From Candidatus Bathyarchaeota archaeon (GTDB lineage: Archaea; Thermoproteota; Bathyarchaeia; Bathyarchaeales; Bathycorpusculaceae): a stretch of 55,619 bases of DNA. The notes under the pieces were generated by a model that searched no databases, was not told the DNA's origin, and was given only the letters and a program-made list of their open reading frames with translations. Location of the stretch: contig CAVYRJ010000010.1 in NCBI GenBank assembly GCA_963770935.1, positions 1 to 55,619 on the forward strand, written 5' to 3'. Of this stretch, positions 5,919 through 55,365 are shown one piece after another. The translations under genes and the position numbers were made by a program. Each line of letters opens with the position of its first letter. The first letter of the stretch is position 1.

Positions 5919-6203
5919 TACCTTTCACACTCCGCTTCTGAATCAACGGGGTTTGGCTTTTATAAATTATACCTAAACTCCACTTAATCTTGACATGTTT
6001 AGACTCAAATATCCAAACTATGCAGAAAATTATAGGTGAAGGGTAGGGGCAAAACAAGCAAAGCGCTTAGGATAGGTGGGGAGGGGATGTATTGTAAAAT
6101 TGTCTTCCGTCATTACCTAATAAACATAACTCTCCCGAAAAGCCAGCCAAAGCAAGCATTAAGCTTAATTTTCCACACACCCATACACAAGCAGTGAAAC
6201 AAT

Positions 6204-27897: not shown

Positions 27898-28629
27898 TTG
27901 AGTTTAGCCGTAGAAGCAAATTTAATAACTAAACAATTTGGCCAAGTAAGAGCGCTTGACGGAGTAAGCTTTAACATTAAACCAGGCGAAATCTACGGCT
28001 TAATTGGACCCAACGGTGCCGGAAAAACCACGACACTGCGAATTGTCTGCACATTAATCCAGCCAACAACAGGCACGATAAAGATTTTTGGTCAAGATGC
28101 AACCAAGCAACCTGAAAAGACGCGGCAAATTATCAGTTATTTGCCTGAGGAATCTGGTGCATATCCCAACCTTACGGGTTTAGAGTACCTTCAGTTCATG
28201 GCCAAACTCCAGAGCAAACCAGACACAAACCTAAAAGCCACCATAGAAGAAGCAACGAAAATCTGCGGTCTAGGAGACCGATTGAAAGATAAAGCCAAAA
28301 CCTACAGCAAAGGCATGAAACGACGATTGCTTGTCGCACGGGCTTTAATGACTAGGCCAAAGTTAGCTGTTCTTGATGAACCTGCAAGCGGATTAGACGT
28401 TTTGTACGCTTACCATATCCGAGAAATCATTAAACGCTATGTCAAGGAGCATGGGGTAACGGTTTTGCTTAGTAGCCACAACATGCTTGAAGTTGAATAC
28501 CTCTGCGACCGTGTTGCGCTTGTGCACAAAGGGAAGTTGGTGATTGAGGGGGAACCTAAAGCGCTTAAAGCACAGTATAGTAGCGAGAACTTGGAAGAGG
28601 TTTTTGCGAAGGTGGTTGGATTTGCTTAA
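27898..28629 (+). CDS. ABC exporter ATPase (NatA-like)
   Basis: GPNGAGKTT, YSKGMKRRL, LDEPASGLD. Confidence 0.88.
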   Translation: MSLAVEANLITKQFGQVRALDGVSFNIKPGEIYGLIGPNGAGKTTTLRIVCTLIQPTTGTIKIFGQDATKQPEKTRQIISYLPEESGAYPNLTGLEYLQFMAKLQSKPDTNLKATIEEATKICGLGDRLKDKAKTYSKGMKRRLLVARALMTRPKLAVLDEPASGLDVLYAYHIREIIKRYVKEHGVTVLLSSHNMLEVEYLCDRVALVHKGKLVIEGEPKALKAQYSSENLEEVFAKVVGFA

Positions 28630-29911
28630 AGGCTTCACAACAATCCTTATCAAAGAACTAAAAGAGCTTATGCGTGACCCAAAAATCCTAGTCGGCATGA
28701 TAGTGTTGCCCTTGATTATGTTTCCGGTCCTTGGTTTAGTTATGGGTTTTGCGGTTCAGTCAGCTCAGGAGGAAGCACAAAGGGCGACTTTGCTAGTTGT
28801 CGACAATGACAACAATGGAAATTGGAGTAGTGCGTTTGTAAGTTATTTGAATAGCACCATGAATGTGGAAGTTATCAGAGACCTTTCGCCACAAAACATT
28901 GTTGATCAAGGTTTGCTTGGGAAATACAACAGTTCTATGTTTCTGGAGATTCCTTCAGGATTCAGCAATAACTTGACTATGCATGCCAATGGCGCAAAGA
29001 ATGTTACGGGAATGGTCAATGTCTACGGAGTATTCACTGGCGGAGGCGGAATTTTCAGCGGCATTGGCGGAACAGCGGTCACTGCAATTGTTGGGAGTTT
29101 TAACCGTGCAGTAGCGCCGGATGTAGTTGCAGTTTCCCAATCAAGCATCATTAAGGGTCAAATCGAGCAGGGCGTTGATGCCAGCACCCTTTCGGGTTTA
29201 ATGTTGTCACAATCTATTGCTTTACCAATCACCATTATGATCATGTTGACTTATGCGATGCAGATTGCTGCCACCAGTGTGGCGATGGAGAAGGAAGAAA
29301 AAACTTTGGAGACTTTGCTTACTACCCCTGTGGACAGGTTTGCAATTTTAATGGGAAAAGTTTCAAGCACAATCATTGTTGCTGGGGCTGCTTCGATTGC
29401 AGTTTTGGTCGGCTACAACTACATGATTGGCTCTATATCAAATAATATCGCTGGAAATGTGAGTGGCAGCGTTGATTTGGTTGCTCTTGGTTTAGTGCCT
29501 TCAGTTTGGGGCTATATTCTTCTGGGTGTCAGCTTATTTTTCACGTTGATGTCGGCTTTAGCGCTGGCAGTGATTATGTCCGCGTTCAGCGAAAATGTCC
29601 GTGGGGCACAAGCGTTGGTTGGTTATATTTATCCGTTAATTTTCATACCTTCGCTAGCTTTGGTTTACTTGGATGTGAATTCGCTGCCGCTTGCAGTAAA
29701 AGCAATCTTTTATGCTATTCCGTATAGTCACCCAATTATTGCGGCAAAAGCAGTAGTTACAGGAGATTACGGAACGGTAATATTCGGAATTGCTTATGTT
29801 GCAATCTTTACAATAGCTATAATGTACATCGCCTCACGGCTATTTGCAACAGAGAAAATTTTGACAGCAAAACTAAAATTCGGCAAAGGAAAAGCAAAAC
29901 CAAGCGAATAA
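28622..29911 (+). CDS. ABC exporter permease (NatB-like)
   Basis: KELKELMRD, EKEEKTLETLL.TPV, IPYSHP; TTG start overlapping the ATPase stop. Confidence 0.85.
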   Translation: MLKGFTTILIKELKELMRDPKILVGMIVLPLIMFPVLGLVMGFAVQSAQEEAQRATLLVVDNDNNGNWSSAFVSYLNSTMNVEVIRDLSPQNIVDQGLLGKYNSSMFLEIPSGFSNNLTMHANGAKNVTGMVNVYGVFTGGGGIFSGIGGTAVTAIVGSFNRAVAPDVVAVSQSSIIKGQIEQGVDASTLSGLMLSQSIALPITIMIMLTYAMQIAATSVAMEKEEKTLETLLTTPVDRFAILMGKVSSTIIVAGAASIAVLVGYNYMIGSISNNIAGNVSGSVDLVALGLVPSVWGYILLGVSLFFTLMSALALAVIMSAFSENVRGAQALVGYIYPLIFIPSLALVYLDVNSLPLAVKAIFYAIPYSHPIIAAKAVVTGDYGTVIFGIAYVAIFTIAIMYIASRLFATEKILTAKLKFGKGKAKPSE

Positions 29912-30005: not shown

Positions 30006-30043
30006 GTTGTTGGTTGGATTAAATTTTAATCCCCAAACCCAAA
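30006..30043. repeat. Island palindrome copy A
   Basis: GTTGTTGGTT-GGATTAAATTTTAATCC-CCAAACCCAAA; perfect 8-1-8 palindrome at 30016-30032. Confidence 0.85.
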
Positions 30044-30164
30044 TAGAAAATTCTTCTATCTGTGACTGCGCATAAGCTATCACATTGTTTTAAATTCAGC
30101 ACTAAACGGAGTTACAATGTGAAGTCTAGATTATACGAAATTTTCCCTATGGAGGTGAAAGCTC

Positions 30165-30428
30165 TTGATTTTTGTAAGTCTTGGCAAAATGAGGAAGAAA
30201 CCTGATAAGGCAATGGCTGGGAACGCCACCGAAAAAGTGGCGGAGTTCAAGAAGAAGGGAATAAACATCCTGAACTGGTATTGGACCCTTGGGCGCTATG
30301 ATACAGTCGTTGTATTTGAAGCTGCAAACGAAAAAGAAGCGCTAAAATTCTCCTTAGGAGTAGCAGAGTTCGTAGCCACAGAAACCCTTGTAGCGATACC
30401 GAGGCAAGAGGCAATAGAGCTTCTATAA
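30165..30428 (+). CDS. GYD-domain protein
   Basis: YWTLGRYD.VVVFEA; GGAGGTGA ribosome-binding site. Confidence 0.85.
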   Translation: MIFVSLGKMRKKPDKAMAGNATEKVAEFKKKGINILNWYWTLGRYDTVVVFEAANEKEALKFSLGVAEFVATETLVAIPRQEAIELL

Positions 30429-30488
30429 GAAAAGTTGTTGTCCAGCGCAAATGTTTTTGTGCAACAGTTTATCCTCTTTTCCCTTTTT

Positions 30489-30517
30489 GGATTAAAACTT
30501 GGTCCCCAAACCTAAAA
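30489..30517. repeat. Island palindrome copy B (degenerate)
   Basis: GGATTAAAACTTGGTCC-CCAAACCTAAAA. Confidence 0.7.
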
Positions 30518-30899
30518 CTACTACTCCATAGTCTTCTAGAAGCAAAACATAAAATCGTCTAATATGTATAGTCGGAATCCAGTATACGCCCTTATTGATT
30601 GTATTCAGGTATTGTTGCCTGTTTCATGGCGCACTCTTTTTCATAATGAATACGGTGACGCTATAAAGCTTTCAAACGTCATGGTGAGTCTAAAAAATTA
30701 GGCTTTTATTTTTCATCCTTCAAAACGAACTTGTAACATTCACATTTAGGTTTAGTACACACTCTATCTAAAAAATACGAATGCTCACTTTTAAGATGCC
30801 CACACGTGCACATTTCAATTTTAATTTTAGCTTTATCCATCAAGATTTATCCTTGTTAAATGAACAACTTTAACCTTCAAAAAGTTTTAGGTGTGGGTC

Positions 30900-30925
30900 A
30901 AATTAAATTTTAATCCCCAAATAGG
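30900..30925. repeat. Island palindrome copy C
   Basis: AAATTAAATTTTAATCC-CCAAATAGG. Confidence 0.8.
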
Positions 30926-30996
30926 AAGAAAAATAGCAAACACTAAAATAAGGTAAATAAAATATTGATAAAGTGCATAAACAACCTGAGAAAGAC

Positions 30997-31125
30997 TTGA
31001 ATAGGGTTTTATGTCCAAAGTGTCCTTATTGTGGTAGAACTCTTCTTGAAGAAGATGAAGATGTCGTTAAGTGTTTTGATTGTGGTATGGGCAAGTATAA
31101 GCAAGGTAGACATAAGAAGTATTGA
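30997..31125 (+). CDS. 42-aa Zn-ribbon microprotein (below the ORF-track cutoff)
   Basis: MNRVLCPKCPYCGRTLLEEDEDVVKCFDCGMGKYKQGRHKKY; two CxxC pairs. Confidence 0.55.
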   Translation: MNRVLCPKCPYCGRTLLEEDEDVVKCFDCGMGKYKQGRHKKY

Positions 31126-31158
31126 AAATAATTGCTAAAGTAATGATATGGAAGAACA

Positions 31159-31362
31159 TTGGAAAATTTTAACGTGTTCGAATCTAAAATAAGTTCGCGT
31201 AGTAATTGGGGAAGTAATCTACCTTACGAGTGTCTTCGGTGTGGAGCAATTACGATGGGTGAAAACATAGCGGATAGAGGCGTAGTCAAGTGTGTTGTAT
31301 GCGGATACAGAGTTTTAAAGAAGACAAAATCGCCAGTAGTAAAGAGAGTTCCCGCAAATTGA
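31159..31362 (+). CDS. RNA polymerase subunit Rpo12/RpoP-like protein (probable paralog)
   Basis: YECLRCG...KCVVCGYRVLKK.K.PVVKRVPA. Confidence 0.75.
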   Translation: MENFNVFESKISSRSNWGSNLPYECLRCGAITMGENIADRGVVKCVVCGYRVLKKTKSPVVKRVPAN

Positions 31363-31429
31363 TATAAAAACTTAATCAAAATTGATTCTTTTTTAAGTCA
31401 ATATAGCTCCTTGCCTTTTGTGATTTTTT

Positions 31430-31455
31430 TGATTAAATTTTATTCCAAGAATAGG
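31430..31455. repeat. Island palindrome copy D
   Basis: TGATTAAATTTTATTCC-AAGAATAGG. Confidence 0.65.
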
Positions 31456-31591
31456 GTATTAGATTTTCTATTTTTTATTTTCTAAATTAATAAAAATCTT
31501 GGAAAATATTATTCTTACTCTTTTTTTAATCCGTTTAGAAATTAGAAATTCAATGACTGTTTTCTGCATTTTAAGAAAAATGAAGCATGTC

Positions 31592-32191
31592 TCAATGTGC
31601 AGATTTATTCTTCTCATCGTTTATTGAATTTGGGAAATCTTGTCTCAAATACGAACAATACTTGTCAACCAAACGGTCATAGTACCCAACTTCCATTCCA
31701 GAAGTACGAAGCAACCCATACTCGGTACATCCAAGCATCCAAGACATAACATGTGCAAGTTCAACTCTTTCACTTGAAGCAAAATAATCATTCTCAATCA
31801 ACTGAACAACAATAGCACTCATATTTTTGAGAAAATCAATAAATTGATTAAACTTGGCTTGTCCTACTTCTGCAATTCTCTTTTCAGGCAACCAAGCAAC
31901 ATAATGCTCAAGAATGTTTCCTCCAGCTGGGTCAATGGCAAACTTATCTTTGGGTAATAAGGTGCCCAGTTTGTAGTCTAATTTGCTTTTAACTATCATT
32001 TTGAATTTGGGTTCAACCATTACTCTGAAACTGAAGACAACTTCATCTTCAACTCTATCTCTGGTCAGGAAATGTAGACTCCGAACTCCTTTTAGCCCAT
32101 CAGCAAACTTGTAAACTTCAACAAGTACATTTTTCAATGAAGCAGGATTGCATTTGAAAACTGCAACACACCATTCTTTGGAAACGGTCAT
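31592..32191 (-). CDS. Hypothetical protein, 199 aa
   Basis: Long intact ORF with an upstream TATA-like element; no confident family. Confidence 0.7.
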   Translation of the reverse strand: MTVSKEWCVAVFKCNPASLKNVLVEVYKFADGLKGVRSLHFLTRDRVEDEVVFSFRVMVEPKFKMIVKSKLDYKLGTLLPKDKFAIDPAGGNILEHYVAWLPEKRIAEVGQAKFNQFIDFLKNMSAIVVQLIENDYFASSERVELAHVMSWMLGCTEYGLLRTSGMEVGYYDRLVDKYCSYLRQDFPNSINDEKNKSAH

Positions 32192-32261
32192 TTTCTTATC
32201 AACAAGTTGATTTCTCAGTTTTGTATTTAAATATCGTAATCAAGCTCGTTTAGGATTTTAT

Positions 32262-32285
32262 TGATTAAAATTTAATCCACCACCA
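32262..32285. repeat. Island palindrome copy E (contains the stop codon of the adjacent gene)
   Basis: Minus strand TGGTGGT-GGATTAAATTTTAATCA, read as ...WWWIKF*. Confidence 0.8.
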
Positions 32286-32624
32286 ATGCTGTTTTGGTTC
32301 AATAAAGAGAACTTCACTATTTTGTGTTAATTCGAAAACCTTATTCAATCCATATTTTTCGACTTTAGCTTCATAGACGCCCTCTGCAAGCTCAGCAGTT
32401 ACGTTCCCATTATTATCGGTATTCACCGAGAGTATCAACCTTTTAAATGGAGTTCCATTTTTGAGATTTTCAGCCCATTGATCGAGCGTTATTGGTTCCT
32501 TTTCTAATCTGAAAACTTTAACATTAACATCCTTGATTGGTTCATTTCTTTGAAAATTAACCACTCTTACGACAAGCACATAAGTCTTTTCCAAAGCGTG
32601 AATATCAAATTCTTGTGTGACCAA
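32265..32624 (-). CDS. Carboxypeptidase-regulatory-like / prealbumin-like beta-sandwich protein
   Basis: V.VVN....PI.DV.V.V ... TDNNG.V...L.EG.Y...VEK.G. Confidence 0.65.
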   Translation of the reverse strand: MVTQEFDIHALEKTYVLVVRVVNFQRNEPIKDVNVKVFRLEKEPITLDQWAENLKNGTPFKRLILSVNTDNNGNVTAELAEGVYEAKVEKYGLNKVFELTQNSEVLFIEPKQHWWWIKF

Positions 32625-32976
32625 TGTAAAAACCTGAATATTCTTATTCTGAGACTTGCAGATTTAAGACTTATCATCCATGAAGATTTAAGGTATCCTA
32701 CGTTCTATCTTAACCAATGGGTGGAACTTCAAACACTCGATTAAAATGAAATTCAACTTATCTTGTACTTGTTTATGAAGTTAAAAGCAAAGACAAAAAT
32801 CCATCTCTGCACATATTATCTAAGGAGAAGTTTTTGTGAGTAAAAGCAGATTTTTTGATTCACCAAATTGTGGGGGCTGCATCTATAAGGGGGGCAGTTA
32901 CTGTTGGGGGCAATGCTCCCTTAACATTTGGAAAAGAGACAGGGATTACTAAGGCTTCTACTGGAATGCTTGTGAT

Positions 32977-33177
32977 ATGGAAAAATTTGAGAGGTTAAGT
33001 AATGAAGTTCTCGTTAGAACCTGCCCCTGCGGAATCGTATTCAAAACATATGATCTAAAAAAAGTGTACCATTCAAACTGTTGTATGGCAAGTTACGTTA
33101 GAAAAAGATATGGAACCTTGATAGCCCAAAGAAGGAAACATAAGCAAAAGAAGTTTGAAGAGAAAAATAAAAAATAG
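32977..33177 (+). CDS. Small basic Cys/His-containing hypothetical protein
   Basis: RTCPCG..F......YHSNCC; Lys-rich tail. Confidence 0.55.
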   Translation: MEKFERLSNEVLVRTCPCGIVFKTYDLKKVYHSNCCMASYVRKRYGTLIAQRRKHKQKKFEEKNKK

Positions 33178-33302
33178 TCTAAATGGGAAGAGTTAGAGAA
33201 AGTGCCTCAGTCTTGGGTCTTCAACAGGATTTTCAATCAGACGGCAGAAGACCAAAACTTACTGTGCCTTTGTGTTTACTTCGCGTGTTTCGCAAAGTAT
33301 TC

Positions 33303-33590
33303 CTAGGCTTTTGCAAGCATTATTTCAATTGTTGAAACCATACGTGCTCTGTTTTCGCCTTCTCTTGGCGGCATCTCCTCTGTTCCTATCAAGATTTTTT
33401 GTACTTTCAGGTCTTTCAGGAAGCGATTTCTGGTTATTTCAGCTGCGTCAACAGCTGTAGCTATTGCTTTTCCTCTGGCTTTCAAAGTTATATCTTTAGC
33501 ATCGCTCGCGGACAGGCCTGTCATAATCGCCATAACATAGTCCATGGGCATCTTGTTTCCAATGAAGACAATTTTTGATTTTTCCGACAT
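33303..33590 (-). CDS. albA: DNA/RNA-binding protein Alba
   Basis: FIGNK..MDYV, LKARGKAI..AVD.AE, VSTIEI.L. Confidence 0.92.
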   Translation of the reverse strand: MSEKSKIVFIGNKMPMDYVMAIMTGLSASDAKDITLKARGKAIATAVDAAEITRNRFLKDLKVQKILIGTEEMPPREGENRARMVSTIEIMLAKA

Positions 33591-33702
33591 TTTCCATCAC
33601 CATTTATTCATACCGTTACTGACTATACTACACAAACTTCCCTATAAGGCGATTAAACAACAGAGCAGCACTGTAGATATTGTCGTAATAAAACAGAGCC
33701 AG

Positions 33703-33730
33703 TTGGGTTTTGGGGATTAAATTTTAATGC
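33703..33730. repeat. Island palindrome copy F (flank inverted relative to A/B/C)
   Basis: TTGGGTTTTGG-GGATTAAATTTTAATGC. Confidence 0.82.
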
Positions 33731-34132
33731 TGTTCAGTTAAAGCTCTTGTTGAAGGATAGATTCTTAGCTTGACCATAGCTCACATGTTGGGCGTCGTAT
33801 CTGCGGACATCTTGGAAGAGATAAAAGCCAACAAGCAGGCATGAATGAACTTCAAAAGTTTTCACCGAGTACAAGAGGGTTCGCGTGGCCTAAATACAAG
33901 GTGCAAGAAACCTTTCTGCAGAATTCCGAAATAGGCAGGTATTTTATTGAGATGACAAAGAAGAATAAGCAGTTCGGGTTGGGCGGTATAGAGAAATATT
34001 ACTAATTAGCTTCAAATATTTTCTTTCAAAACGGTTATCCAAGGGCAAAATCCGTACATCCTATTTTCTCGATTGTTGTAGCTAGGGCACAATCACGCTC
34101 GCTTAAACGACGGTTTTCACTAACCCGTTTAG

Positions 34133-34630
34133 GTGAAAAGTATGGTTATAGACGAAAAACTCTCAGAAGGAAAAGAAACAGTACAAGTAGAGTTCAGGGA
34201 GGTAAGCAATACTGGGGTCTATATAGCCCACACAGAAGCCAATCAGATAAACTCAATAAATCTATTAGAACAGAATGGCTTTAGGGCACTAACTTTTCAA
34301 GATGCACTTATAAAGATAGATCGGAACCCAGAATTAAAGGAGCAGCTGAAAGGCAGATGGTTATATCTGGACGGGAAAGGCTCTGAATTGTCAGGATTTT
34401 ACATATTCAACGAGAAAGGAGAACTTTCAAAGATCTCTGGACCGGCCATCCTAAAAAAAGGAAAAGGAGATTTAGAGAAAATTGTTTTTGTTTTGAAAGG
34501 TTCCCAGCCGTTGTCGCTCCTCGTGCAAACCGACGACTTCGCCCGTTACGGCGGGTTCCGTTTCGGCCTCTATGCGACCTACGGCCACTCCGACGTTGCG
34601 GGGGTGGTTGTTGGTTGGAATAAAATTTAA
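34133..34630 (+). CDS. Hypothetical protein with a DGR-variable-region-like C-terminus
   Basis: Intact 165-aa ORF; about the last 40 codons switch abruptly to A-poor, NNC-rich sequence; stop codon lies in palindrome copy G. Confidence 0.7.
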   Translation: MKSMVIDEKLSEGKETVQVEFREVSNTGVYIAHTEANQINSINLLEQNGFRALTFQDALIKIDRNPELKEQLKGRWLYLDGKGSELSGFYIFNEKGELSKISGPAILKKGKGDLEKIVFVLKGSQPLSLLVQTDDFARYGGFRFGLYATYGHSDVAGVVVGWNKI

Positions 34631-34633
34631 TCT
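34607..34633. repeat. Island palindrome copy G
   Basis: GTTGTTGGTT-GGAATAAAATTTAATC; 24/26 identical to 30006-30031. Confidence 0.78.
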
Positions 34634-35508
34634 TTCTTTCTCTCTGCTAATCTAGTAATGGAAAAGCAAGGTATAGTATAGAAAACAAAATAGTTATTGT
34701 CGAAATCGAATTCACACATTAAACAACTAAAAAAAATTACATTTAAAGATGTATAGTCTAAAAAAAGAGCCGCCAGCGCCTATTTAAATTGCATTTAGCG
34801 TATGTGTTTAGCTGTTTTAAGTTGTGTTTGATTCTGAAACATGTGTGTGCTGGGTTTCTTGGAGGAATATGCAGTGTTTTTTCTACGCTTAGATGCTTTC
34901 TAGGGCGGCTTCCATTTAGAAGATGCAACTGACCTTTGCGGTGTTTTATCAAAAACCCTTGGAAAATGCTTCTTTTTAAAAAACCAGCTTAAATCAAAAA
35001 CAAACAAGAGAAGATGCTGCTGCTACTGCAACTTTTATTACTAGCACCAGTTGCATCAATCAAACACCTACAAAACTAAGCTTCAACAATAGAAAGCTCA
35101 GATATCAGCCAAAGCCAACACCGCGAAAAACGCCACACCAACCTTATATAACCAAGTCAAAAAAACCAAGCAAAATAACGTACAGGCAGTTATCTAAAAA
35201 CACACCATTTAGCTACTTGGAAATGGCTTCTAACAATTCAAGATTAAGTTGCTTTCTACATACTTTTTTAAGGTCATTTAAAAAACAAAACAAAAAGCGT
35301 AAGTTTATTCTTCTCTTCTATCGACGGAAAACTGTTTTGTTATGTTACGGTTTTTGAAATATGATTTATATGCTTTTTGTAGTGTGCCTTGTTTGGGGAA
35401 AGTAGGAGTATTTTGAGAATTGAAGTCTGTAGTACTATTTGTTAGGAGAATGAGGGAATGGAGCCAATCAAAAATGGCAGAGAGAATCAACACGGAAAAT
35501 GATTAATC

Positions 35509-35818: not shown

Positions 35819-37099
35819 TCACTTTTTAAGTAATTTCATCAGTTTGGGCATTAATTCGCATCCTCGCTCGAGTGTTCCTAGGCTGCCTTTGGCGCATTCC
35901 TTCTCGCTAAACTTAACTGCTTTGCCGCCATCACTGACATGGTCCCCTGAAATCAGCACGGGAACAGGTGTGTCGCTGTGCACTTTAAGCGAGCAGGGTG
36001 TAGCATGGTCAGTGGTTATGCAAATTAGGTTGTCTTTGAGAGAAATCTGTTTTAACAGCGGTCCAAAGAAGTATTTGTCTATGGCTGATATTATTTTTGT
36101 TTTGGCTGCGCAGTTGCCGTCGTGTCCTGGTTCGTCTGGTCCTTTAAGGTGGATGTAGAAGCAGTCGTGTTTTGGCAATATATCAAGCAGGGCTTTTACT
36201 CGGACTTCGCAGTCTTTCTGCAAATTGCATGAGGGCGGCGGAAGAAGTGATGCCTCCATGCCTGCAAGTTGTGCTATTCCGCGTTCAGCATGCATGTCCG
36301 CTAAACAGGCAAAGTTTACGTTGTAACGCTGGTTTATGTTGAAGAATCTTGGAAGCAGATGACCTGCATCCCGTGTTAACACCACGTTTGCTTTAAGTTT
36401 GCCTTCCGCAGCACGTTTGACGTTTATAGGGTGGTTTTCCCAAAGAACGTGGGATTTTTCAATAAACTCGTTAACTAAGCCTGCGGAGACTTTTGCTGCT
36501 TCCGTTTTATCGGTGGGTTCGCTGGTTTTAAGCTCCATGTCTACGTCGGTTTTTGCAACTCCTATACCGTTAACCACGGTGTAGGCTGGGTCACTGTTGG
36601 TTATTTCGCTTGAGAGAGGCTTGGCTTTACTTTTAATTAGCAAAACTGCCCTGTGCCCTAAGGTATTTCGGAACTCAAAATCCGCAGGGTAAGAGGTCAA
36701 TTTGACTTCTTTATTAACAGCTTTAGTAAGCACGGTGGCTTCTTCAGTGCTCAATGTTCGGGCTACGCGGCGGTCAAGAATGTTTTTTCCTTCACCCAAT
36801 GTGGCAAAGTTGCATCGCAGTGCTAAATCGCCATCTTTCATATTCAAGCCAACGCCAGCCGCTTCTATGACGCCTCTGCCTGTGCTATATTTGAAAGGAT
36901 CATAGCCTAAAAGCGAAATTACTGCAACGTCGCTCTCTGGCGCCACACCTTTCTTCACCGAGTACATTAAACCAGTTTTCCCAGTTTTAGCAAGAGAATC
37001 CATATTTGGGGTTTCTGCTACTTCAAGAGGAGTTTTATTGCCTAAAGTTTTGATTGGCAAGTCGCCCATACCGTCTATTGCAACGAAGATTAGTTTCAA
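35819..37099 (-). CDS. apgM: 2,3-bisphosphoglycerate-independent phosphoglycerate mutase (archaeal type)
   Basis: DGMGD, TPLE.A.TPNMD, PESDVA..SLLGYDP, HLKGPDEPGHDG, TDHATP, HSDTPVP. Confidence 0.9.
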   Translation of the reverse strand: MKLIFVAIDGMGDLPIKTLGNKTPLEVAETPNMDSLAKTGKTGLMYSVKKGVAPESDVAVISLLGYDPFKYSTGRGVIEAAGVGLNMKDGDLALRCNFATLGEGKNILDRRVARTLSTEEATVLTKAVNKEVKLTSYPADFEFRNTLGHRAVLLIKSKAKPLSSEITNSDPAYTVVNGIGVAKTDVDMELKTSEPTDKTEAAKVSAGLVNEFIEKSHVLWENHPINVKRAAEGKLKANVVLTRDAGHLLPRFFNINQRYNVNFACLADMHAERGIAQLAGMEASLLPPPSCNLQKDCEVRVKALLDILPKHDCFYIHLKGPDEPGHDGNCAAKTKIISAIDKYFFGPLLKQISLKDNLICITTDHATPCSLKVHSDTPVPVLISGDHVSDGGKAVKFSEKECAKGSLGTLERGCELMPKLMKLLKK

Positions 37100-53932: not shown

Positions 53933-54020
53933 GCAGGGGTCGCCGAGCATGGTCAAAGGCGTAGGCTTCAGGAGCCTATCCTTCAGAGGTTCGTGGGTTC
54001 AAATCCCACCCCCTGCACCA
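53933..54020 (+). tRNA. tRNA-Leu(CAG), CCA encoded
   Basis: Acceptor GCAGGGG/CCCCTGC, anticodon arm TAGGC-TTCAGGA-GCCTA, long variable arm, T arm GTGGG-TTCAAAT-CCCAC, ACCA end. Confidence 0.95.
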
Positions 54021-54087
54021 TTTATAAGTAAAAGTAAGGGGGTGTAGAATGGCGATGCTTTTTAGTCGGTTTAATGTTTTCATGTTC

Positions 54088-55365
54088 TTATTTCCTTTTC
54101 TTGAATATTTTTGAGTCTTGAAAGTCAGTGACGTACTCGAATCCTGCCTCTATTAGAGCGCAGATTTCTTGTGCGGTTTTTGCGACTTTTGAGATGTATT
54201 CGTTTTCGCCCTGGAAGAGTGCTTCTTCGAGTTGAACGTATAGGAGTGTGTTTTTAATGTTTTTGTGTCCTAGCCGTTGCATGACGTAGTACATGTCTTT
54301 GGTTTCGTGGTAGAGCATAGTGCCTTTCCAGTATCTGAAGGTGTGGAAGTGAATTTTCATTAGTCTTTGGTTTTGTATTTTGTTTGCGGTGCGTCTTCGT
54401 TGGCGTTGGAAATTTACTGCGTAATTGTCGATTCTCATATGTGGAAATGAGAAGACTCTGTCGCCGTAGTTTTTTGGCAGGTGATCGAGCATTTCTAGGA
54501 GTTTGATGCTTAGGCGGGCGACGCGTGGGTTGCTGTTTTTTTCAGGTGTTATGTTTACGACTTTGCTTTCGAAGTCTACGTCGGTCCAGTTTAGTTGCCA
54601 GATTTCGCCGCATCTTGCACCAGTTTCTTTTAGTAGCGTTAGGAATGTTGCCATGCGTATGCTGCTGCCTGCGATGAGTTGGTCGATTTCGGCTTCTTTT
54701 GGAATGAAAGGAATTTTTCGTACGCTTTTGTAGACTGGGGGTTCCCATTCTCCGCCGACCATTTTTAGGAAGGAGGAGTAGGCGTCGACTGCGTTGCTTT
54801 TTTGGCCGTTGCACCATTTTTGTTCAGCGATAGTTTTCTTTAAGGATTCAGGGTCGTAGAGGTTTGCTCCGCGTTTTGCGAGTCTTCGTAATAGTTTAAC
54901 TCTTCCAAAGATTGTTGCTTCGCTTCTTCCGTTGCTTTTGAGCCAGATTGCATATTCAAGGATTTTTTGTTTGAATTCGCCAGTTTCGCTTCTCGGCAGA
55001 ACTTCAATTTGTTGTTCTGCTACCAAGTTTTTCGTCTCCGTGACGCATATTTGGCGAGTAGCTACTATGCCCTCTGGGGTTTTTAATAACTTCGTATCAA
55101 CTGTTCCAACAGTTTCAATGGCTTTTTTGGCTTTTTGAAGGTCATTTGGGTCTGAGAAGCGTAGGCCACAGTTTCTGCAGATCCAACGTTGGATTCTTTG
55201 GTCAAAAAAATATCGGCTTCCATCTCGCCAGACTTTTTTAGAGCGGCATTGTGGGCATAGGGGGCTGGTGCCGGTGGAGCCTTGGGCAGACTCCAACTTA
55301 CAAGAATTAAAACCGACTTTAGTGCCAAATACGTCTGGAGAAGGTTTCGATGTAAGCTCAGCCAT
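54088..55365 (-). mobile_element. Tyrosine recombinase/integrase with an N-terminal Zn ribbon, at the tRNA-Leu 3' end
   Basis: CPQC...CRNC; catalytic set TGAR, K, HTFR, LGH, Y. Confidence 0.92.

Follow-up and report, generated by a model that had tools for sequence, protein, structure and literature searches.

Why should one short palindrome recur again and again between small, unrelated genes? The question is raised by a 4.6-kb stretch (30016-34633) of a 55,619-nucleotide contig from a Candidatus Bathyarchaeota archaeon. This contig, analysed over its full length and hereafter called the window, is the entire contig C10 of the host assembly G000 (1.98 Mb, 18 contigs, 91% complete). An original prediction had described at least seven copies of a 17-bp palindrome within these 4.6 kb, separating small and independently oriented genes, and had proposed a gene-capture or gene-shuffling platform. 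We found that the palindrome-delimited array of gene modules is real. On balance, the sequence comparisons described below favor the palindrome as the point of crossover in a recombination process by which small modules, usually of one gene, are inserted, inverted, and exchanged in chromosomes of a lineage of Bathyarchaeia, which suggests an archaeal gene-shuffling system unlike integrons.

A search with GGATTAAAWTTTAATCC at two mismatches or fewer yielded six matches in the window (30016, 30900, 31430, 32262, 33714, and 34617). By chance, 0.01 matches would be expected, and none of 100 shuffles gave as many as six. A seventh copy at 30489 has three mismatches to GGATTAAAWTTTAATCC, which brings the count to the predicted number, and all copies are confined to 30016-34633. 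The genome-wide scan proposed in the original prediction gave 10 sites at two mismatches or fewer in G000, 6 of which lie inside the 4.6 kb, and none with the reversed pattern used as the control. The G+C content of the array stretch was 0.31-0.41, compared with 0.43 for the genome. The one-sided CCAAACCC-type flank was also confirmed: copies 1, 2, and 3 have it on their right side, and copy 6 has it, inverted as had been described, on its left. Copies 1 and 7 have a 28-base direct repeat in common (family D1), as well as 12 further bases that encode VVGW. The window copies have in common just a site of 17-28 bases, with no repeat of the length of a variable region.

The anatomy of the site was determined with a profile of 155 sites (310 half-sites) from the host genome, 28 relatives' loci, and 33 GTDB loci. 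The core, ATTAAA-W-TTTAAT (13 bases), is usually extended to GG...CC. Read outward, a half-site consists of W, then TTTAAT with 98-99% conservation (91% at one position), and then CC (76% and 67%); core variants such as TTTAGT occur. Over the next ~14 bases, the frequency of G falls to 6-9% to about position 17, and the background is reached again near position 22. The flanks are simple repeats of the types (CA)n, (CT)n, (CCAA)n, (CCCAAA)n, (CCT)n, and (CGA)n, opposite which stand the complementary G-rich types. Flank types on the left and right are combined without restriction, and the flanks move along with the adjacent module; therefore, we concluded that each site is a hybrid of two module ends. 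The palindrome seldom extends beyond 17 bases, as an arm reached more than 2 bases past the 13-mer in only 16 of the 146 sites. Between both flanks of a given site, 3.88 positions matched, compared with 4.30 ± 0.16 in random flank pairs. Since this complementarity is not above random, no long hairpin is formed, and an extended hairpin or attC-like fold was rejected. The symmetry centre is a single base, and hence a symmetric spacer must be odd (1, 5, or 7 bases) and not 6. The central A/T was the same in 36 pairs of neighbouring sites and different in 31, and an orientation rule based on this base was rejected. At three loci, core pairs were observed only 25-31 bases apart, with C-rich simple repeat only between them (L069, 1562/1591; L116, 6963/6994; L020, 2652/2677); such pairs may represent "empty modules" that recombination has left behind.

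At these sites, homology between genomes breaks off. Pieces of the island interior matched scattered places at 80-94% identity, compared with 68-87% for the flanking core genes, and they recurred in other genomes in other orders and orientations, which supported the predicted separation of unrelated, independently oriented genes. When all loci were compared with one another, 51 of the 383 internal points at which homology ends were located within 10 bases of a core centre, with the peak just past the core; the expectation for random positions was 0.7% (maximum 1.8% in 300 draws). Among 143 sites, 47 were informative: homology only stopped at 43, both stopped and spanned at 4, and only spanned at none, whereas 292 of 397 random positions were only spanned. 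The far side was not syntenic in any of the 109 junction comparisons (40 sites) in which the other locus had room. Homology passed through a site in two distinct cases only, with the core in both genomes each time, and there was no case in the compared loci of a core inserted into otherwise continuous homology. An invariant gene order, which the original prediction had named as a sign against shuffling, was not what we observed: gene order varies, and homology blocks break at the motif.

Within the window, copies 3, 4, 5, and 7 (4 of 7) are homology stop points. Eight homology blocks stop at copy 3 and none spans it, and the homolog in G021 of the module to its right begins directly after the core position, without the core. 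In G013:C60, the module ending at copy 4 is joined straight to window position 33130, and many relatives' matches start at window position 32280, at copy 5. Copy 6 could not be counted as a breakpoint because the homology to G013 and G021 ends at 33671, 43 bases ahead of it. Read layout was judged from contigs of runs X1, X2, X3, and X5. Contigs of X2 part from the window left of 30009, beside copy 1; a joint 30589>34621 in X5 contigs, with just 25 bases on one side, was too weak to use. Parts of 30.9-32.8 kb were not covered by contigs of X2 and X3, an observation from which nothing follows. Of the 66 whole metagenome contigs among the loci listed, 17 have a site less than 100 bases from a contig end (expected, 5.0 ± 2.1), which fits alternative neighbours within populations.

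Several rearrangements could be followed individually. At one syntenic locus, G003, G047, and G004 have the left context and the core in common and then continue into three unrelated right sides, each of which opens with its own C-rich flank; G071 and G042 are without the site. In G012, a 1287-base insert lies between two sites. It encodes an SPFH/Band 7 protein (E 3e-30) and a small membrane protein in a further open reading frame (ORF), opens with a C-rich flank, and closes with GGTTGGTTGG, and the core is present on both sides. G000:C14:42490 is a single site, both sides of which match the outer contexts of this insert. G023 carries the block to the right of the G000:C14 site in inverted orientation, as does G076 at two places, and the far breakpoint of the G023 inversion is located at a site-like sequence. 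Module boundaries, varied contexts, the empty and occupied pair, and the inversion thus lend partial support to the proposed capture and shuffling of genes; the integron, XerA, and Zn-ribbon integrase proposed together with it were not supported, as described below. Two further features were observed at locus L042 (G003:C1:982000-989000). A repeat of ~100-250 bases at ~1350-1600, with dozens of copies in G047, G004, G071, and G042, is a high-copy, MITE-like element (MITE, miniature inverted-repeat transposable element) that occupies the variable hotspot in which the junction sites also lie. A small gene (VVEIPRIKVGQRQTIETLINEEVLL...) is present as two inverted paralogs, at 2829-2969 and 5984-6177, with 3 kb of the variable segment between them, and its product looks like an antitoxin-type small DNA-binding protein.

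The site was identified in 19 of 24 other genomes of the genus, with up to 30 copies (G013), and was absent from 5 of 24, namely, G005, G006, G007, G014, and G024, so that the range in the genus is 0-30 sites per genome; controls gave 0-1. The single-contig genome G014 has no match to the 17-mer at two mismatches or fewer. The variant KKGGKKGG-N11-17-CCMMCCMM, sought in genomes without sites, gave 1 match in 5 genomes. In an exact scan of GTDB species genomes, 32 of the 80 loci listed were Bathyarchaeia or Bathyarchaeota records, and the remaining listed matches look like chance matches in AT-rich bacteria and an unrelated gammaproteobacterial palindrome. The latter, found in high-GC contigs (L057, L063, L066, L077, L085, L095, L102, L106, L109, L114, L118, and L136), is a perfect palindrome of 41 bases, AAGGGGACGGAGGG-ATTAAAWTTTAAT-CCCTCCGTCCCCTT, which has the AT core in common with our site but GC-rich arms that are unrelated; it is a separate repeat family, caught by the exact search. 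Metagenome contigs with a 21-base version of the site provided at least 80 loci, and among those listed 44 of 80 hold two or more sites, with a median spacing of ~850 bases. Two flank-extended site patterns gave 0 and 1 match in viral contigs, and the sole match (L206) has one site only; on this basis, a virus or plasmid origin was rejected. Literature searches, including exact 17-mers and 13-mers, returned no description of the element as judged by titles and abstracts, and the sequence matches were unrelated.

With respect to genes, the position of the site is variable. In relatives' arrays (L018, L019, and L021), one gene of either strand lies between consecutive sites, and sites were found at convergent, divergent, and tandem gene junctions. 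The distance from the core to the nearest outward ORF start ranged from 5 to more than 800 bases with no preferred value, and that to stop codons from 0 to ~190. TATA-like words upstream of 623 long ORFs peaked at -50 to -41, and the conserved promoter of IleRS is CTTTTATATA at about -38 in 14 genomes. Considering the varied distances and the three kinds of placement, a single promoter or terminator role does not fit. A sole role in transcription was rejected, as the distance from site to start is not fixed and the IleRS promoter differs; the fixed spacing that the original prediction had named as the mark of an operator was found neither from promoters nor from start codons. A 16-base motif, AAGTCTTAAATCTGCA, is located on the minus strand at 32657-32672, 32 bases upstream of the start of a 119-amino-acid (aa) ORF in the array. 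It recurs at relatives' module borders (L022, L021, and L122), with one exact copy in G000, and is probably a TATA-type promoter, likely the 119-aa gene's own, that moves with modules.

Here, we consider it somewhat more probable than not that the palindrome is a dedicated recombination site, most likely used in conservative site-specific recombination by an enzyme supplied in trans. A module with one joined site would recombine with a resident site. Such a model explains the duplicated core, the hybrid flanks, and, as the core is symmetric, the insertion in either orientation. The enzyme would act in trans and would most likely be one of the unlinked tyrosine recombinases, which would imply a 7-base AT-rich overlap between short arms, possibly the 5-base arms around a 7-base core of the original prediction. 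In G000, tyrosine recombinase genes lie at C10:54088, C18:6871-7623, and C3:17223.

A number of observations weigh against this model. The arms are short, and their outer part is constrained in composition only, which is unusual for the site of a tyrosine recombinase. The loci were chosen for holding sites or for resembling the window, and the genomes are kin, so that the counts given above are not independent events. Among homology blocks of at least 150 bases, 48 run from a site to another kind of end and 13 from site to site. The 45-aa module of the array occurs with three different 3' limits, the boundaries of the G003 array do not run from site to site when it is set against G071, its closest relative, and homologs of several modules keep the flank and are without the core. 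Only one clean pair of empty and occupied loci was found. The search for the enzyme added further points. Within 10 kb of arrays in G013, G003, G019, G016, and G002, no PF00589 match was detected except G016:C5:466208, 3 kb from a site. XerA had been proposed as the driver, and its equivalog model NF040815 (cut-off, 220 bits) gave at best 98 bits in G000, G003, G013, G014, and G016, two of which are single-contig genomes, so that 0 of 5 reached the cut-off; the named control genomes gave 4 matches over it. The serine recombinase family PF00239 had no match in G000, G013, G014, and G005, and two matches in G003, the sole one of the five genomes searched to have any. The Y1 transposase PF01797 was found neither in G003 (10 sites) nor in G019 (14 sites), and the G000 fragment was below the cut-off. 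The Zn-ribbon integrase at 54088, the second proposed driver, belongs to a family that is common in site-free genomes (78% identity in G005) and that had no match at E 1e-10 in G012, which has 5 sites; neither candidate was supported. A 45-aa Cys/His protein encoded in the array was rejected as a partner, being present in only 6 of 41 genomes.

As to the surroundings of the Zn-ribbon integrase, window positions 53933-55365 hold a tRNA-Leu(CAG) gene followed directly by the gene for the 425-aa tyrosine recombinase with an N-terminal Zn ribbon, and the contig ends 254 bases on. Such an arrangement typically marks an element that has integrated at a tRNA gene.

We then weighed other explanations for the palindrome. 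As predicted, two genes take their stop codon from the motif: the 119-aa ORF (32265-32624) ends WWWIKF-stop and a 165-aa ORF (34133-34630) ends GWNKI-stop. Accordingly, the motif might represent a 3' coding end conserved in a family of proteins (..GW-I/N-K-F/I-stop) or else the repeat of a diversity-generating retroelement (DGR), with the extra copies as decayed gene ends. Five window copies can indeed be read in frame as W/G-I/N-K-F/I-stop, and the bases coding VVGW are common to copies 1 and 7. The homologs in relatives, the comparison of which the original prediction had suggested, end otherwise: the 119-aa homolog ends HWWQ-stop in G003 and RWWQ-stop in G020, with just a degenerate core-like sequence there, and the 165-aa homolog in G002 reads on to VVGVRVSYS-stop, the DNA homology ending at GGTTGG. 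For both long ORFs, DNA homology halts at the motif edge. The differing ORF ends and the halt of homology together indicated that the site replaced native gene ends. Furthermore, the other genomic copies stand on stubs of just 15-27 codons, the flanks are non-coding simple-repeat classes on both sides, and of all ORFs in the genome with an [IN]K[FI] ending, just the two in the window are long, on which ground the protein-tail reading was rejected. No match to the reverse transcriptase family PF00078 was found in G000 (91% complete), and as the copies are alike over the 17-28 base site only, a DGR was rejected as well. We regard either form of this explanation as very improbable. It is improbable, to a lesser degree, that the modules are transposon-like units or that the palindrome is the preferred target of a transposase, duplicated on insertion. 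The G-poor flanks and half-cores would then be compositional terminal inverted repeats used by a transposase in trans, and one-ended or read-through events would yield variable far ends. Every module end, read inward, starts with a half-core and a C-rich flank, the core is duplicated around the G012 insert, one fixed end with a variable other end is frequent, and, as a weak sign, neighbours with the same asymmetric core variant are direct in 4 pairs and inverted in 1. However, the modules differ from one another in both gene and flank class, and no repeated element family is seen; no protein family recurs near sites among 651 ORFs, the widest cluster spanning 5 loci. Moreover, the Y1 transposase is missing from G003 and G019, which both have sites, the left half of the right copy in G012 is unlike the left half of the target, which fits a hybrid site better, and the compared loci hold none of the cores within continuous homology mentioned above.

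Rather unlikely, though less so than transposition, is that the palindrome is a cis-acting element of gene borders, namely, an operator bound by a regulatory dimer, an architectural or insulator site, or a terminator working in both directions, with the mosaic as a by-product. As the only sequence common to unrelated accessory genes, the palindrome is where homologous or microhomology recombination would cross. The 13-base form, abcde-WWW-edcba, presumably resembles Lrp-type sites. The extreme conservation of the core across species is as for a protein-binding site, and in each of its 8 copies (6 genomes), the unit of the 45-aa gene has the core at a constant ~57 bases upstream of the start, every far flank being different. 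No dedicated recombinase was found in the genomes searched, and one-ended boundaries are common, which fits exchange anchored on a single short homology. A parallel exists in the promoter-carrying AT-rich intergenic repeats of mosaic haloarchaeal viruses, as outlined in PMC7230728. On the other side, the three kinds of gene junction at which the sites lie, their widely variable distances to start codons (~57 to more than 200 bases) and stop codons, and the different canonical promoter (CTTTTATATA) do not agree with such an element. The 0-30 sites per genome are all in accessory DNA, five of the 24 genomes have none, and no conserved gene carries the site genome-wide. In addition, identity over 13-17 bases is very short for homologous recombination, and a duplicated core around an insert is a prediction of conservative site-specific insertion.

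The window holds six modules between natAB and apgM, with the last codons of two genes replaced by the site. The sites, modules, and borders are listed in Table 1. The two borders had been suggested as a syntenic frame, but natAB and apgM are not neighbours in relatives, lying 56 kb apart in G002, 91 kb in G001, and 8 kb in G005, and are therefore unusable for this purpose. At the left border, relatives' homology ends at ~29923, and X3 contigs part from the window after 29912. The array holds small genes on both strands, three ORFs of which are without known family. The GYD and Alba labels given in the original prediction were confirmed by Pfam matches, that of Alba to PF01918 (E 4.1e-13). The label "Rpo12-like" was sub-threshold only (PF03604, 17.8 bits; cut-off, 24), and that of a DGR target was dropped, the 165-aa ORF being without a Pfam family and G000 without reverse transcriptase. 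The 45-aa gene has a paralog at G000:C1:192254-192385 with 95% protein identity and about 94-95% DNA identity. Module 3 recurs in G013:C60, G003, G021, G024, and locus L122, beside other partners. Module 5 has internal breakpoints at 32942 and 33300 in contigs and at 33130 against G013. Among 60 other genomes of the genus, only 2 gave a match to the 165-aa ORF. Its nearest Atlas clusters are hypothetical proteins of DPANN (Nanobdellota), with scores of 0.94-0.95, a likeness that would possibly be a sign of transfer between archaeal phyla. Beside the array, the insertion at 34684-35316 carries a 406-base repeat (34800-35205), copies of which are located at C11:164933-165337 and C16:96678-97075 (95% identity). 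Many contigs part exactly at 34796-34800 and 35205-35206, and the insertion is probably a MITE-like mobile element.

Table 1 Palindrome copies, gene modules, and borders of the array (window coordinates).
Feature	Position	Strand	Description
Copy 1	30016..30032		Perfect 17-mer, 0 mismatches; left flank GTTGGTTGG, right flank CCAAACCCAAA
Copy 2	30489..30505		Degenerate, 3 mismatches; right flank CCCCAAACC; between two convergent genes; without informative homology comparison
Copy 3	30900..30916		2 mismatches; flanked by divergent genes, whose start codons both lie ~65 bases from the site centre
Copy 4	31430..31446		2 mismatches; between convergent genes; 3 homology stops, 0 spans
Copy 5	32262..32278		Provides last 4 codons and stop of 119-aa ORF; 2 stops, 0 spans
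Copy 6	33714..33730		G-rich left flank GTTGGGTTTTGG; between divergent genes
Copy 7	34617..34633		Provides last codons and stop of 165-aa ORF; right flank CT-rich; 1 stop, 0 spans
Module 1, GYD-domain protein gene	30165..30428	+	PF08734, E 8.6e-12
Module 2, gene of 45-aa Cys/His-rich small protein	30706..30843	-	Conserved unit 30690-30917
Module 3, two Zn-ribbon ORFs	30973..31362	+	30973-31125; 31159-31362, weakly RpoP-like; sub-threshold Pfam matches only
Module 4, 199-aa ORF	31592..32191	-	No Pfam family; nearest Atlas cluster, Bathyarchaeota hypothetical proteins (score 0.96)
Module 5, composite	32265..33590		119-aa ORF 32265-32624 (-); 66-aa Cys-rich ORF 32977-33177 (+); Alba 33303-33590 (-)
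Module 6, 54-aa ORF and 165-aa ORF	33841..34630	+	165-aa ORF at 34133-34630
Left border, ABC transporter pair	27898..29911	+	Conserved; natA-like and natB-like
Right border, apgM-like gene	35819..37099	-	Conserved
Separate insertion beside the array	34684..35316		Absent from contigs of X1, X2, and X5, which show the joint 34683>35317

Several known systems resemble this array in part. In shufflons, short repeats at segment borders allow inversion, and parts of one gene are switched by a linked recombinase. One inverted module was likewise seen here, but whole unrelated genes are moved, no linked enzyme was found, and no serine recombinase was found in G000 or G013. Repetitive extragenic palindromes (REPs), the bacterial interspersed mosaic elements (BIMEs), and the intergenic mosaic elements of Neisseria are short extragenic palindromes that stand in arrays and coincide with rearrangement points. 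REPs are described as present in more than 100 copies per genome, going with a tyrosine (Y1) transposase (PMC2817692), and as having GC-rich stems in the account of PMC3184786. In contrast, the sites studied here number 0-30 per genome and have an AT-rich core, whole genes lie between the copies, the Y1 transposase does not co-occur, and no simple insertion was seen. Conserved AT-rich repeats between genes of mosaic archaeal genomes are also a property of the HF1/HF2-group haloviruses, whose repeats, as portrayed in PMC7230728, are viral and long, have promoter activity, and are positioned with respect to mapped transcripts; our sites have no fixed gene distance, are chromosomal, and, in the two flank-extended patterns searched, are nearly absent from viral contigs.

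The working mode is most like that of dif modules and partly like that of integron cassette arrays, and the array lacks defining properties of each. The attC sites of integrons have a length of some tens of bases and carry extrahelical bases. Arrays of mostly single-gene cassettes, cassettes common to genomes, and many clusters without a nearby integrase are features that integrons and attC clusters, including archaeal ones, have in common with our arrays, as far as described in PMC9668308. According to the same account, integron cassettes generally point the same way, and attC sites function in a folded, single-stranded form. Here, the site is a 17-base perfect palindrome without flank complementarity, the genes are on both strands, and there is no linked IntI-like gene. 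The recombinases of G000 scored 22-44 bits against TIGR02249 (cut-off, 265); the IntI-specific domain was not searched. Integron membership, as proposed in the original prediction, was therefore not supported, there being no attC-like structure, genes on both strands, and no tyrosine recombinase linked to the arrays in the five genomes checked save the one 3 kb off. The dif modules (pdif) of Acinetobacter plasmids, as they are outlined in the literature consulted, are alike in that short inverted-repeat sites bound small modules of either orientation, with the recombinase not beside them, and in that modules are shuffled between replicons, as they move between contexts here. Bacterial dif consists of 11-base arms around a 6-base spacer (PMC2958812), and pdif sites are XerC/XerD binding sites. 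Unlike these, the present site is an odd-centred 17-base palindrome whose outer arms are constrained in composition only, it is chromosomal and archaeal, and no XerA equivalog was found in any of the 5 genomes searched.

Tentatively, these comparisons may point to an undescribed chromosomal cassette platform in peat and wetland Bathyarchaeia, in which single genes might be captured, flipped, and exchanged via a symmetric 17-base site with G-poor ends by a trans-acting recombinase distinct from both integron integrases and canonical Xer proteins. How the abundant, uncultured Bathyarchaeia acquire accessory genes is poorly known. The site would give a sequence handle on their flexible gene pool in metagenomes, explain where their assemblies break, and lead to a recombinase that acts on a compact, symmetric target and would also be of interest as a tool. 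If true, the platform would join integrons and dif modules as a third type of cassette system delimited by sites, and no earlier one would be native to Archaea.

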